Positions 18,418 through 37,435 are shown, counted from the stretch's first letter. The stretch is 64,000 nucleotides of DNA from an uncultured Planctomycetaceae bacterium (GCA_963793635.1 CAWCAX010000004.1:1276004-1340003); one strand, 5' to 3'. Made by a program: numbers and translations. The notes: generated by a model not told the origin, from the letters alone.

Positions 18418-18499
18418 GCGAGAGTGGCGGAATTGGCAGACGCGCTGGACTTAGGATCCAGTGGGGCAACCCGTCCGGGTTCGACTCCCGGCTCTCGCA
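18418..18499 (+). tRNA. tRNA-Leu (anticodon UAG), class II with a long variable arm. CCA is not encoded.
   Basis: Hand-folded. Acceptor GCGAGAG/CTCTCGC. Anticodon stem CTGGA/TCCAG with loop CTTAGGA. Variable arm GGGGCAACCCGT. T arm CCGGG-TTCGACT-CCCGG. Discriminator A. Confidence 0.9.
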
Positions 18500-18513
18500 T
18501 CTGATTCAACACA

Positions 18514-18550
18514 AAGGGCTTGCGGCAAATCGCTGCAAGCCCTTCTTCGT
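18514..18550 (+). terminator. Hairpin downstream of tRNA-Leu, a possible intrinsic terminator.
   Basis: AAGGGCTTGC...GCAAGCCCTT is a 10-bp stem followed by CTTCGTT. The U-tract is weak. Confidence 0.4.
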
Positions 18551-18569
18551 TGGCAAAATCGAATCTCCC

Positions 18570-19080
18570 TCAATTCTCCCCACTTTTTGAATCCGCAGGA
18601 TTTCCTTCGGGCTTCGATTTGGCGTTTTGCTGGGGGTGGCCATTCTGGTTTTGAATGGCGTCCATCACTTGGTCCGAGATCAAGGTCTCATTGAGATTAA
18701 CGTAGTGCTGCCGCATCGTTTCAGGGTGGCAGCCAAAGGCGATGGAAGCGGCGTCGTAACCAATCCCGGCTTGCACGGCCCTGGACATCGCCGTGCCACG
18801 CAGATTGTGGAGTTTGAATCGCTTCAATTCGGGATGGGTCCGCAGATACAAGCTGAGTTCGTCTTGGAGCCATTGCTTCAACTGCTGCGGCGTGAAGCGC
18901 TTAATCGTGGCCGCATGGTGCGGCATACCCCCTCATGGGTCTGCTGGACGTTGCGTGCAGGGAAGAAGAATCGGTCGATCATGACCCAAGTGGCCGCTGA
19001 CTTACCTTTGCCAGACGATTTTGATGATGCCGCTTTCTGCCGCTTGGGAATTGGACGCTTCTTTATTGGCGGGAGACTTT
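18570..19080 (-). pseudogene. Decayed tyrosine-recombinase (integrase) gene adjacent to the tRNA.
   Basis: ORF 18570..18926 has the C-terminal catalytic region LHNLRGTAMSRAVQAG...GCHPETMRQHYV. Upstream integrase-like pieces (KIVWQR, GKSAATWVMIDRFFFPARN) lie in other frames, with stops between them. Confidence 0.6.
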
Positions 19081-19112
19081 GAGGATTCCCGTGGGCGGAT
19101 CATCGCCGCAAC

Positions 19113-19346
19113 TTGTACCCGGACTCGTACTCGATCCAGGCGCACGCGGGTATTCCGAAGGCCCGGCAGTACACTTTCAAGGACTGCCGCAGCACGTGCG
19201 CGACGCAGTGGTTCGCGGATGGAGAGTCAAGGCTGGTGGTCAAGGACTGGCTGGGGCACGCTTCGGTGACGACGCTCGAACCCTTCTACGCTCGGATAGA
19301 GGCTGCTCGCCGTGCTGCCGCTGGTCGGCGAAAGGTGGTGGGCTGA
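19113..19346 (+). pseudogene. C-terminal remnant of a second integrase family (copy A).
   Basis: YTFKDCRSTCATQWFADGESRLVVKDWLGHASVTTLEPFYA. There is no N-terminal or core domain. Homology to copies B and C stops about 45 nt after the stop codon. Confidence 0.6.
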
Positions 19347-19451
19347 ATCTCAGGCGGCCTCGCGAAGTCTTCCGGCGTGATGCAACCCATTTCCATCAGC
19401 TGTGCCGCCCGGGCCGGCGAGCAGGCGCAGCCTCGTTGATAGCGCGCCGTG

Positions 19452-19913
19452 CTAGGACGAGCGGTTTCTGGAAAGCAGCGGAAAATCGATTTGGACTTCG
19501 CAGCCCGGCGAGTTTTGCGGCACGATAATTCGGGGCAGATCTTCTGGTGCCAACTCGGGCACGTAGCTCTCGCCTGGCGAGCGGGTGTAGGCCGAGGGGG
19601 GCGACTTCCAGCACTCGATATTCACCCGGTATTCTCCGGGATACAAGCCGTCGCCAGGGCGGAACGTGCTCGCCTTGAAGCGGCCATCCGTGCCGAAGGC
19701 TGCTCGACCAGGGCGCCGCGGCACGCCGGCCTCCCCCGCAATCGTGGCGAAATACAGCTCGCCCACCGCCGGCCAGTCGCCGCCACCATACGTGACCCGA
19801 CCCGAGACGGGCGTCAACTCGGGGTGCCGCGGGCGACAGCCGGCAACGAGCGCGCCGCACACGACCGCCAGACAGCCCGACAGACGTTGCCAAGCGGCGA
19901 GCCGGCCGGACAT
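19452..19913 (-). CDS. Small lipoprotein, a typical partner gene downstream of DUF1559 proteins.
   Basis: MSGRLAAWQRLSGCLAVVCGALVAGC carries a lipobox. Then a beta-sandwich-like VSGRVTYGG...GEYRVNIE. Confidence 0.6.
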   Translation of the reverse strand: MSGRLAAWQRLSGCLAVVCGALVAGCRPRHPELTPVSGRVTYGGGDWPAVGELYFATIAGEAGVPRRPGRAAFGTDGRFKASTFRPGDGLYPGEYRVNIECWKSPPSAYTRSPGESYVPELAPEDLPRIIVPQNSPGCEVQIDFPLLSRNRSS

Positions 19914-34743: not shown

Positions 34744-35121
34744 CTAATCAGCCGTTTTAGGTTCGCCCGCCAACTCGCAAATCCGCTCAACGAGCTTGTC
34801 GAAACCGATCGTCCCTTTGACAAGAAAGTCTACCGCGCCCAGCCGCTTGGCTTCGGTCATAGTTTTGTGCTGGATATCTGTCGAATACATCACGACCGGC
34901 ACGTCTTTCAGTTCTGTGTGCTCCTTGATCGATTTCAGAACAGTTAGACCGTCCATTTCGGGCATGTTGACGTCGAGCACCACCAGCGCCGGCTTGCGGA
35001 TGTGGAGCATCGCCAACGCCTCGGCGCCGCCCGTGACGGAAACGGCTTCGTGACCGGCGTAGCGGAGAAGGCGTTCGAGGCCGGTGCCGATGTCTTTCTG
35101 GTCGTCGACAATCAGGATCAT
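34744..35121 (-). CDS. Single-domain CheY-like response regulator.
   Basis: MILIVDDQ ... LVVLDVNMPEMDG ... PVVMYST ... FLVKG. Confidence 0.85.
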   Translation of the reverse strand: MILIVDDQKDIGTGLERLLRYAGHEAVSVTGGAEALAMLHIRKPALVVLDVNMPEMDGLTVLKSIKEHTELKDVPVVMYSTDIQHKTMTEAKRLGAVDFLVKGTIGFDKLVERICELAGEPKTAD

Positions 35122-35127
35122 GTTCTT

Positions 35128-36310
35128 TCACATGCTCTCGATGTGTTCCGCATCTAATATAGGCTGCCCGACTCTCGGCGCGGCTTCGCGCGGCAGATCA
35201 ATAGTGAACAAGGTGCCCTCTGCCGCAGTGGAAGTCACATCGATTCGTCCGCCGTGCGACTTGGCAACTTCGCGGGCGATGTAGAGCCCCATGCCGATGC
35301 TGCCGGGGCGATTTTTCGTCGGATGTTCCGCGCTGGAGCCGCGAATCAGCGGGTCAAAGATTTTCGGCAACTCGCCCGGTGGAATGGGCTCGCCGCCGTT
35401 GTGAACGTCGATGAAGACGTTCGACGTTTCGCCACGGAGTGAAAGCGTGACCGGGAAATCCGCCGAGCCGTGTTGAATGGCGTTGCCCAGGAGGTTGGAG
35501 ATGGCCTGGCGGATGCGGTCGGAATCCCACAGGCCGTTCAAGTCGCCATGCGTGCGATATTGAATGTCCCGCTTGGGGTGACCGGTGCGGAATTCTTCGA
35601 ACAGTTCTCCTGCGAGGCTTCCGAGGTCTAATGGCGCGGGTTTGACGGGCATCCCTGCGCCGAGCCGAGTGCGGGTATAGTCGAGAAGGTCAGCGATCAT
35701 GCGTTCCATGACCGACACGTTGCGGGTGATCTGGTGGCTACAGGCAATGGCCTCGGCGGGATCTTTGCAGACGAGCGGCACCATGTGCGCCGTCATGCCG
35801 ATGGAGTTGAGCGGATTGCGCAAATCGTGACTGAGGATGGCCAGGAACATGTCCCGCGCCTGATCAACGCGCCTGGTGTAACTGGCAACGGCTTTCGCGA
35901 TAGACTGGTCGATCGATTCATTGAAGCGAGTGAGGTCATCGACATCGCGCTCGTCGGCACCAGGCGAACTGATCGTGCCAAAGTCGAAGCACGCTAGCGC
36001 GCAGGGCGCGGTATTCGCTCATCACCTCCAGCAAGTCAAACCCCAGGCCCAGGCGATCGACAGCGTGCGATTTGGAGGCTCCGTCGAGGGCGTCATTTTC
36101 GTGGTGATCCAGTCCCTTGGATTTCTTCACCCGCTCTGCGGCGGTTTGAGGCGACTTCATGTCCCGCGCGGTGGCTTTCAGGATTTGCCCGGCGTGGTCG
36201 CGCAGCGCGAGTTGGTCCAGATGTTCACCCGCGCCGATGCTCCGCGCGAAGGTTTCCCACTCGGCCAGGATAGGCTCGACGTTTGACAGGATAAAGTCAG
36301 CAAGACGCAT
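35128..36310 (-). pseudogene. Sensor histidine kinase (RsbRD-N-like sensor + HisKA + HATPase). One frameshift as sequenced.
   Basis: N-terminal ORF 35936..36310 reads ILAEWETFARS...LRDHAGQILKA...EYRALRASVLRLW. C-terminal ORF 35128..35850 reads FLAILSHDLRNPLNSI ... GNAIQHG ... GMGLYIAREV. The linker SSPGADERDVDDLTRFNESIDQSIAKAV is readable upstream of Met35850. The join is near 35965-35980. Confidence 0.75.
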
Positions 36311-36654
36311 CTGTAACTCTGGGACAGTTTGATTTTGTGTCGACAGGGCCGATCCGCCTCATTTGAGGAACGCCAATGTATTGTAGGTCGCGCGGACAAT
36401 ACTTAACAGGCACATTTGCAGAGGACGGCACCCCCTGAACACGAACGACAGAGAGACGCACGTCTTCCAACCCGCAGTGCGCTACGTTCTACGTTTTGAG
36501 CCTTGCCCCGAAAAACGACCCCGCTCTTAAGACAGCATCACGTGCCGGGAACTAAATCGCATTTGATGGAGCGGCTCGGTGCAGACCAGCCGCTCTCGCG
36601 AGACTAGAATTATGATGTCATTCGTCCCAAATAAGCGATCTGCGGAAGTCTCGC

Positions 36655-37069
36655 ATGAACCTGAAGTGGCTCGAATCGTTCTCGTCATCGGCCACTCGCT
36701 TCGTGAGTAGCAGCTGGGGGATGCTGTCAGGAGTTTTGGTCTTCGTCTATTGGCTGGTCGCTGGTCCGCTGATCGACTGGGGCAACGCTTGGTTCTATTT
36801 TGACGCAGTCGCCTCGGCCGCGGCGTTCTTTCTGCTGTTTTTGCTGCAACGATCGCAGACCAAAAGACAGCATGGCGCTTCATCTTAAAATCAATGAACT
36901 GCTCGCAGCTTTGAACAAAGCAAGTCCCGTTCTCATCAATGTCGAAGATCTCGGTGAAGATGAGCTTATGCAAATGCATGACGACTTTCAGGAGCTACAG
37001 AAAAACGACACAGCCTCGCATTCAATCGAAGAAGTCACTAAGCCGCCGGTTGAGTCCAAGAATCCTTGA
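36655..37069 (+). pseudogene. Low-affinity iron permease family protein, frameshifted at an AAAA run.
   Basis: WGMLSGVLVFVYWLVAGPL...AAFFLLFLLQRSQTK in one frame, then DSMALHLKINELLAALNKA...DLGEDELMQM in the next. The junction is the homopolymer 36862-36865. Confidence 0.6.
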
Positions 37070-37117
37070 TTCCCCGCCGATGGCCAGCTTGGTGCTTCAG
37101 AGCAAGACCGGCTCTAG

Positions 37118-37293
37118 TATACGTTCAAGGATTGTCGGTCCACTTGGCCACGCAGATTGTCGCATTGGGGGAGCCAACACTGGTCGTGAAGGACTGGCTT
37201 GGCCATGCATCCGTGACGACGCTGGAACGGCTTTATGCTCGCACGGAGGGGGCTTGTCGGGATGTTGCCGGTCGGCGGAAGGTGGTGGGCTGA
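37118..37293 (+). pseudogene. Integrase C-terminal remnant (copy C), internally frameshifted.
   Basis: YTFKDCRST in one frame, then ATQIVALGEPTLVVKDWLGHASVTTLERLYARTEG...RRKVVG* in ORF 37066..37293. Confidence 0.55.
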
Positions 37294-37385
37294 GTCTCAG
37301 GCGGTCTCACGAAGTCTTCCGCCGTGATGCAACCGGAGGTACAACAGCGGGCGATGAGTCGGGCACCGCCGGAATTTTCGGCGGT

Positions 37386-37435
37386 CTTAGGATCCAATGG
37401 GGCAACCCGTCCGGGTTCGACTCCCGGCTCTCGCA
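37386..37435 (+). repeat. attR-like direct repeat of the tRNA-Leu 3' half.
   Basis: It is 50 nt long and identical to 18450..18499 except for one position (CCAATGG versus CCAGTGG). The two sequences diverge immediately after CTCTCGCA. Confidence 0.85.

Follow-up and report, generated by a model that had tools for sequence, protein, structure and literature searches.

The Islander catalogue lists 3919 islands in transfer RNA (tRNA) genes (tDNAs), 2083 of them centred on the anticodon and 3760 with 3' fragments of the tDNA, and tandem arrays number 125 for two or more islands and just 4 for three or more (PMC4383910). Decay followed by accretion at attachment (att) sites, with chimeric internal att junctions, has also been documented (PMC5704250). 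Here we describe a tRNA-Leu(UAG) locus in a stretch of 64,000 nucleotides (nt) from an uncultured Planctomycetaceae bacterium (GCA_963793635.1, CAWCAX010000004.1:1276004-1340003), referred to below as the window and numbered from its first letter. An initial annotation of positions 18418-37435, made from the sequence alone, had described an integration hotspot with a 50-bp direct repeat 19 kb apart and a nested variant att site. Our analysis makes it likely that the locus is not one 19-kb island with a nested site; three or more decayed integrative elements would be arranged in tandem in one tRNA-Leu(UAG) gene, joined at chimeric junctions and produced by tyrosine-integrase recombination at the anticodon loop.

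The sole tRNA gene of the window is an intact tRNA-Leu(UAG) at 18418-18499 on the plus strand (tRNA-Leu(tag) by ARAGORN; Rfam tRNA, 58.2 bits). It is followed by a terminator hairpin at 18514-18544 (+), in which a 13-bp stem precedes CUUCUUCGUU (-27.7 kcal/mol, z = -5.85); an Rfam match to STnc390 that falls on this hairpin is spurious. The repeated att core, O1, occupies 18447-18499 and spans the gene from the anticodon loop (CTTAGGA) as far as the discriminator. It is paired by the repeat finder, over 53 nt and at 96% identity, with a displaced tRNA-Leu 3' half at 37383-37435 (+), O3 (repeat family D11), from which it differs by one G>A in the anticodon stem and one change just 5' of the loop. 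A variant displaced 3' half, O', lies between them at 32451-32502 (+). The 22-mer GGTTCGACTCCCNNCTCTCGCA occurs exactly three times in the window, at 18478, 32481 and 37414 (0.02 expected by chance), as does the anticodon-loop string CTTAGGATCCA, at 18450, 32451 and 37386 (0.47 expected by chance). In all copies identity begins at tRNA position 30-33 (GGnCTTAGGATCCA) and extends to the 3' end, as in the anticodon-loop (A-type) class of sublocation (Williams 2002), and divergence of the three copies sets in 0-2 nt past CTCTCGCA. The crossover site most likely lies within the anticodon loop. The layout is that of a tDNA island, with an intact tRNA gene at one end and same-strand fragments of that gene at 32451-32502 and 37383-37435. 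What the initial annotation had reported of these repeats, namely the recurrence of the 3' half at 37386-37435, the divergence right after the tRNA 3' end and a third copy at 32451-32502 with altered variable arm and T stem, was borne out.

The variable arm (ACCC-GAAA-GGGT) and T stem (GAGGG/CCCTC) of O' both differ from those of the native gene and yet pair, the changes being compensatory; its acceptor strand is that of the native gene. When the native 5' half was joined to either 32451-32502 or 37386-37435, ARAGORN returned a normal tRNA-Leu(tag) call. Among the matches listed from at least 119 tRNA-Leu(UAG) loci with the same 5' half, O' is best matched by natural tRNA-Leu 3' halves of other planctomycetes, in loci L084 (Gemmatales), L018 and L103. 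Judged from these sequences, O' fits an origin in an element whose attP copied the tRNA of a somewhat different host lineage, in agreement with the earlier suggestion that the element had brought its own tRNA-like attP. A hairpin also follows O', at about 32525-32563 (fold z = -2.96). No tRNA was called by ARAGORN on the partial copies in situ, and a permissive Rfam scan of the whole window (E ≤ 1) gave no tRNA match besides the gene at 18418. Shuffled sequence aligned with the tRNA 5' half at least as well as the 85 nt upstream of each partial copy did, which led us to reject a degenerate tRNA 5' half as the origin of the arm before the copies. The partial copies are displaced tRNA halves and not decayed tRNA genes; the sequence at 37386 is thus an att site, as first proposed, rather than part of a second degraded tRNA gene.

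Five integrase stubs of three lineages (intA, intB and intC) accompany these sites, and tblastn with full-length integrases of related loci indicated that every one keeps only the last 45-100 residues. The queries are genuine integrases: the protein of locus L013 (372 amino acids, aa) matches PF00589 at 7e-22, and that of L116 (420 aa) matches phrog_1 (PHROG integrase) at 2e-19. PsiintA, a tyrosine integrase C-terminal stub (18570-18926, -), reads toward the tRNA 3' end and retains HNLR...H...Y; positions 18633-18923 match residues 291-388 of the L116 integrase (35% identity, E = 4e-13). PsiintB-1 (19083-19346, +) abuts PsiintA head-to-head and extends from about aa 279 to the end of the protein, with 19086-19289 matching residues 279-347 of the L013 integrase (48%, E = 1.4e-14) and with profile matches to PF00589 (0.004) and phrog_1 (4.5e-7). 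PsiintB-2 (32225-32358, +) is degraded, with an in-frame stop; 32225-32314 match L013 residues 322-351, and the stub is 87% identical to the 37-kb copy (blastn). That copy, the frameshifted PsiintB-3 (37118-37293, +; open reading frame (ORF) 37066-37293), matches L013 residues 318-363 over 37147-37284. PsiintC (32665-32931, -), a C-terminal stub of an intB/L013-family integrase, reads toward O' and matches L013 residues 285-361 over 32683-32904 (44%, E = 1.4e-14); its profile matches are phrog_1 (1.4e-5) and PF00589 (1.7e-5; 25.1 bits, below the 27.1-bit curated cut-off). Homology to tyrosine recombinases was therefore found for all three lineages, directly for intB and intC and by way of the L116 integrase for intA. 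The five integrase remnants of the initial annotation hold for 18633-18923 (-), 19086-19343 (+), 32225-32314 (+), 32683-32931 (-) and 37123-37290 (+), and an integrase origin was not demonstrable for the stretches 18927-19080 and 32054-32224 that it had included. The first of these, 5' of PsiintA, may be further degraded sequence.

The aligned integrase family retains K-x-x-R-S, L-G-H and the catalytic Y, and the intB stubs end ...VVKDWLGHASVTTLE.(F/L)YAR...RRKVVG*. Of the complete R-K-H-R-(H/W)-Y set the box-II part alone remains ([K/H]xxR ... H ... Y). In 5/5 stubs the N-terminal 250-310 aa are missing, with truncation points that vary (about aa 255-313). Because the N-terminal two thirds, including the first Arg and Lys, are gone, all five integrases are dead. 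Each interval contains integrase homology solely as stubs of 45-100 aa from the C-terminus, none intact, and without an intact integrase in the window the array is unable to excise by itself. We infer that deletions caused the truncations; at about 19080, where intA and intB-1 abut head-to-head, a single deletion of both N-termini and everything between them would explain the joint. A natural family of short integrases was considered and rejected: 88/88 profile matches are at most 207 aa long, which equals 1.75 times the query length and is probably a search filter, and in their genomic contexts these matches are frameshifted or truncated full-length genes.

Both displaced halves are preceded on the plus strand by the same module, which consists of an intB stub, a 92-nt arm and then the tRNA half. 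The arms, intB-type P arm 2 (32359-32450, +) and P arm 3 (37294-37385, +), lie in repeats at 32350-32461 and 37285-37396 that are 95% identical (repeat family D9). In each, the 8-mers GATGCAAC and GGTACAAC are spaced 12 nt (32391 and 32403 in arm 2, 37326 and 37338 in arm 3), starting 32 nt past the stop codon and ending 40 nt before the core. A partial intB-type P arm (19347-19387, +) follows PsiintB-1 and is cut after the first 8-mer (GATGCAAC at 19379). The three intB modules are 77-87% identical to each other (blastn), and a 19-mer across the intB stop codon, GCTGAGTCTCAGRCGGTCT, is found at 19342, 32354 and 37289, plus 41382, with 0 expected by chance. On the other side of O', the P' arm of the intC-type element (32503-32664, +) carries two copies of GGTACTGC at 12-nt spacing (32637 and 32649) just past the intC stop. 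The same layout after the int stop codon, with TGTAGCAC or TGTAGAAC twice, is present in L013, L125, L126, L129 and L130. Arm 2 also has a GTCTC-N5-GTCTC-like motif; GCTGAGTCTCAGGCGGTCTC, which has this form, extends over the intB stop codon and holds the palindrome CTGAGTCTCAG, is present at 19342, 32354, 37289 and 41382 and in weaker form at 37441 and 37527, recurring outside complete modules, and it may represent a second kind of putative protein-binding site in the arm. As a structured RNA the P arm folds no better than shuffled sequence and has no Rfam match.

Our first search gave a single close protein relative of intB, P0001 (51% identity), a 118-aa stub on the JGI metagenome contig L124 (1647-2143). 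On this contig the stub is followed by 31 nt, by GTTGCAAC and ATTGCAAC at a distance of 12 nt, by 39 nt and then by a tRNA-Leu(UAA) 3' half that starts from the anticodon loop. Since the geometry is equal within 1 nt, in an unrelated sample and with another Leu isoacceptor, the comparison is good evidence that the 92-nt intB arm is a real attP arm.

Full-length integrase relatives adjoin tRNA-Leu genes in other planctomycete metagenome-assembled genomes (MAGs), and 8/119 tRNA-Leu(UAG) blocks among the matches listed carry intA/intB-type integrase relatives beside the tRNA. The intB/L013 family is found on both sides of the core. The integrases of L013, L071, L125, L126, L129 and L130, together with intC, lie beyond the tRNA 3' end (the acceptor side) and converge on the tRNA; the intB copies and the stub of L124 are found on the anticodon side, pointing at the core. 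Integration places the integrase of an intB-type element at the far (attR) end, which explains why the intB stubs stand just left of the displaced halves. Two arrangements also exist for the intA/L116 family, which is convergent in the window and reads into the 5' end of a complete tRNA in L116, L035 and L126. In L128, from another member of the Planctomycetaceae, a 2.7-kb remnant with a 75-aa integrase stub lies between tRNA-Leu(UAG) and a displaced half whose first nucleotide is the same as in the window, and this is an independent decayed island at the same tRNA-Leu(UAG) sublocation. L129 and L130 have L013-type stubs beside orphan tRNA-Leu halves, the stub in L129 abutting prophage tail genes. 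At 10001-12011 of L126 a tRNA-Leu(CAA) has an integrase on both sides, a truncated L013-type integrase converging on its 3' side and a frameshifted L116-type ORF that ends 9 nt before its 5' end. Upstream of tRNA-Leu, L116, L035 and L126 share a conserved tail of this L116-type ORF (...LRAEGNSALDGEENLPQTIGA), which may be an element-borne tRNA promoter region.

The two blocks bounded by O1/O' and O'/O3 contain no intact integrase, relaxase, conjugation or phage genes among the ORFs scanned (Pfam, PHROG), which is the condition found in cis-mobilizable elements (CIMEs). Phage structural, packaging or lysis genes were likewise not seen, as the 10 unannotated ORFs have no PHROG match and the Pfam matches are to cellular functions; the blocks do not qualify as prophage. 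The first block, E2 (19388-32224), encodes three DUF1559 proteins (one split), a PEP-CTERM protein, a FecR/NPCBM-like protein, an ECF sigma factor and a giant fn3-repeat protein (26554-31870). Its composition is host-like: the tetranucleotide z is at most 0.8, as in the flanks, over 19-26 kb, and the GC content at third codon positions (GC3) of its genes (19.4-32 kb) is 0.72-0.83, the flank GC3 being 0.70-0.82. These 13 kb between the first and second modules look native or donated by a close relative. The fn3 gene is split over two overlapping ORFs, 26554-30141 and 29795-31870, with fn3 repeats of about 285-300 nt, and a second very repetitive gene is located at about 2000-6000. The internal repeats of these two genes by themselves give a strong tetranucleotide deviation, which is therefore not evidence of foreign origin. 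The second block, E3 (32932-37117), has a lower GC content (0.55-0.60) and encodes a His-rich small protein, a small lipoprotein, a response regulator, a histidine kinase (two ORFs) and a low-affinity iron permease (two ORFs). The His-rich protein (33331-33552, +) has 73 aa with HHH/AAHH repeats and no family match, and its gene adjoins those of the small lipoprotein and the two-component pair. With the flanks as reference, the tetranucleotide z is 1.2-2.4 over 32-43 kb, at a GC content of 0.57-0.59. The 19 kb that had been taken as cargo, its imported share being left open, thus divides into a host-like part at 19.4-32 kb and a part that looks foreign from about 32.5 kb, the latter running on to 42.5 kb.

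The right end of the island had been placed at 37435, and this is probably not where the array ends. Further intB-type arm sequence lies at 37441-37592 (+), with GTCTC-N5-GTCTC at 37441 and a P-arm-like segment at 37524-37592. This segment aligns to the intB arm with z = 9-11, a score reached by 0/1000 shuffles, and contains GGTGCAAC twice at 12-nt spacing (37570 and 37582). It is either a P' arm or a fourth P-arm remnant. A compositionally foreign block follows at 37672-42500 (tetranucleotide z = 1.8-2.3), in which the genes right of O3 (GGDEF, B12-binding, ABM, OsmC and an unknown ORF at 41759) have a GC3 of 0.56-0.70, against 0.70-0.82 in the flanks. The block also holds the intB P-arm-start motif (41382-41400) and one copy of a 60-nt repeat (41574-41633). 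From the arm sequence and the composition right of O3, the foreign-looking DNA would form one block of about 32.5-42.5 kb that crosses the proposed attR. Beyond the 19-nt motif and the 60-nt repeat, nothing significant was found at 41.3-41.7 kb when a sixth integrase remnant, a fourth tRNA half or the original flank was sought there.

The 60-nt repeat is an 80% direct repeat of 60-75 nt between 32936-32995 and 41574-41633, with a 24-mer core that is exact except for one R position. The first copy stands at the exact 5' truncation point of PsiintC and the second 190 nt right of the 41382 motif; the repeat shows no homology to integrases and is absent from all loci retrieved. A similarity between 18652-18695 and 42550-42593 was treated as chance. 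Within the low-GC3 block, the operon-like genes at 37672-40257 (-) for an ABM-type monooxygenase, a B12-binding-domain protein and a GGDEF diguanylate cyclase may form a cobalamin- or light-linked c-di-GMP signalling unit.

The following history would account for the locus. The attP of each element would have reproduced the 3' part of the tRNA, anticodon loop (CTTAGGA) and discriminator included, and each element would have had a terminator of its own. Recombination with the chromosomal gene would have taken place most likely inside the 7-nt anticodon loop, between the inverted arms of the anticodon stem. On integration the resident 3' half and its terminator would be renewed by the copy in the element, and the earlier half would be displaced to the far end. 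Repeated events would then give the order tRNA, O', O3, with chimeric junctions such as PsiintB>-P-O'-P'-<PsiintC. Elements of two polarities would have taken part, the "convergent" intA and intC types with int just past the tRNA 3' end and the intB type with int on the anticodon side. With the integrase at the element edge and reading outward in both polarities, internal deletions would leave C-terminal stubs beside the att sites, the form seen in 5/5 cases. The minimum would be three integrations, those of an intA-type or other leftmost element, of an element ending at O' and of an element ending at O3, and the total may rise to five or six events if the arm remnants are included. The initial annotation had likewise spoken of attL/attR-type junctions, successive integrations and decay at one site, and the copies of the tRNA half, the flanking stubs and the arm repeats support that part of it.

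Several observations weigh against this history. The number and order of events are not uniquely derivable. No piece of tRNA follows the first intB module (19083-19387), and the 13-kb block at 19.4-32.2 kb is host-like in tetranucleotide composition and GC3 and without mobility genes. No intact intB-type element was recovered, and a conserved 24-mer of the arm is absent from metagenome and viral contigs. No empty site was found in the nearest relatives recovered, L121 (SASA 80% identical) and L123 (76%); in both, the synteny of the left flank (methylase, LTXXQ-SASA) is kept, no tRNA-Leu follows SASA and nothing is shared to the right. The nearest named homologue of the left-flank esterase is from Pirellulales. 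A scan of the genome collection with the tRNA 5' half gave at least 119 loci in many phyla, none of them syntenic with the window among the matches listed. What lies downstream of SASA varies among the three genomes compared, and in L121 (3818-11786) a SLFN-like helicase gene and DUF1016/YhcG genes, which are defence-like, stand in place of the tRNA array. The methylase gene itself (13837-15525, -), which is syntenic with SASA in L121, encodes an N6/N4 DNA methylase with a C-terminal GIY-YIG nuclease-like segment and has a slightly low GC3 of 0.70.

The quality of the assembly could be gauged from Logan contig L001 (1.7 kb, from the short-read run ERR11630394), which is colinear with window positions 34525-36201 at 99.3% identity, so that the same organism must have been present in that run. 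The two differ at 11 positions, 5/11 being 1-nt indels, which suggests indel errors in one of the two assemblies. Assembly errors rather than decay may therefore account for the frameshifts in the kinase, iron permease, fn3 and DUF1559 genes; the integrase truncations are too large for errors of this kind.

We weighed four other explanations against a tandem array. A single island of about 19 kb, with attL at 18450-18499, attR at 37386-37435 and the middle copy and extra integrase fragments as internal duplications or debris, would agree with the 96% identity of the outer repeats and with the relatedness of the three intB modules at 77-87%. It does not explain why the variable arm and T stem of O' differ and are still structurally valid, as fits a separate tRNA-like attP, why O' is flanked by arms and stubs of two integrase lineages, or why element-type arm sequence and foreign composition continue right of 37435, and we regard it as improbable. 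The 19.4-32.2 kb block could also be native DNA trapped by rearrangement, through recombination between tRNA halves or through fusing deletions, with only the small modules and 32.5-42.5 kb being foreign. Its z values and GC3 are indistinguishable from those of the flanks, its genes are typical of planctomycete housekeeping or envelope functions, no mobility or phage genes were found in it, and its left edge at 19388 breaks inside a P arm with no att core. On the other hand, the block has the intact tRNA on one side and a complete intB-P-O' right end on the other, the same composition would be seen in an element that came from a closely related donor, and none of its genes is syntenic with the SASA flank in L121 or L123. 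We consider a native origin of this block possible though rather unlikely.

The remaining two explanations fare worse. That the partial copies are extra tRNA-Leu genes, duplicated and then decayed in their 5' halves, and so not att sites at all, might be read from the fact that both end exactly at the discriminator and that a hairpin then follows one of them. Yet both begin at the same anticodon-loop nucleotide, a break point that L124 and L128 share, the same integrase stub and arm precede both, and neither the shuffling test on the upstream 85 nt nor the search at E ≤ 1 revealed a lost 5' half; decayed genes are extremely unlikely. A chimeric join of strains or loci at the repeated tRNA/att modules has to be entertained for what is apparently a MAG contig, and more so with 1-nt indels making up 5/11 of the differences from L001 over 1.7 kb. 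The repeats, however, at 50-280 nt and 4-23% divergence, lack the length and the similarity needed to mislead a long-read assembly, and the independent contig L001 is colinear through 34525-36201, which leaves an assembly artefact very unlikely. Successive integration into one tRNA gene thus remains the explanation that we favour.

An extension of the tandem-array history is put forward only tentatively, and we think it unlikely to hold in full. The intB modules and the apparently complete P-O3-P' junction might still be recombination-competent, so that an intact intB-family integrase, encoded at another place in the genome or by an incoming element, could mobilise the blocks in cis or in trans, and the polarity of the intB attP might be flipped relative to that of its nearest full-length relatives. 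If true, this would be a natural case of a tyrosine integrase family re-setting its integration direction at a near-palindromic tRNA core.

The locus leaves the current understanding of integrative elements unchanged, and its interest lies in a poorly studied phylum, in which the tRNA-Leu anticodon loop serves as a repeated landing site for at least two integrase families and in the isoacceptors UAG, UAA and CAA. Such landing sites accumulate non-mobile remnants. For annotation it follows that foreign DNA may extend past a displaced tRNA half and that the short "integrase" ORFs of this locus are stubs; int genes that read outward at element edges offer a simple reason for the C-terminal form of these stubs.

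Comparison with known systems places the locus as follows. Like the Islander islands, it has an intact tDNA at one end and co-oriented 3' fragments at the other, identity from the anticodon loop to the 3' end, tyrosine-integrase genes at element edges and a tandem arrangement. Unlike them, all its integrases are dead stubs and the host is a planctomycete MAG; because Islander requires an integrase for each member of a tandem, it would not call this array. In the accretion described for CIMEs and for the integrative and conjugative elements (ICEs) ICESt1 and ICESt3, as in the window, integration genes are lost and att sites kept, newcomers beside them make chimeric junctions, and distantly related integrases with a common target meet in one tandem. 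In contrast to the ICESt1/ICESt3 type, no conjugation or relaxase genes were seen in the window, and its elements may have been ICEs, integrative and mobilizable elements or phage-like elements. With attP of the lambda type the locus shares direct pairs of 8-mers at a fixed 12-nt spacing, putative arm-type sites, in an arm beside the int stop, and a core at an inverted repeat, here the anticodon stem; it departs from that type in that int may sit on either side of the core within a single integrase family. Archaeal integration of the SSV1 type likewise leaves pieces of integrase next to att sites derived from tRNA genes. Unlike those of SSV1, the intB reading frames of the window stop (32356-32358 and 37291-37293) 92 nt before the core; together with the variable truncation points this marks them as deletion stubs, not parts of a partitioned gene, and an SSV-like split integrase was rejected on these grounds. 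The locus is thus a tRNA-Leu landing site of a well-known kind and adds a further, heavily decayed planctomycete example to it.

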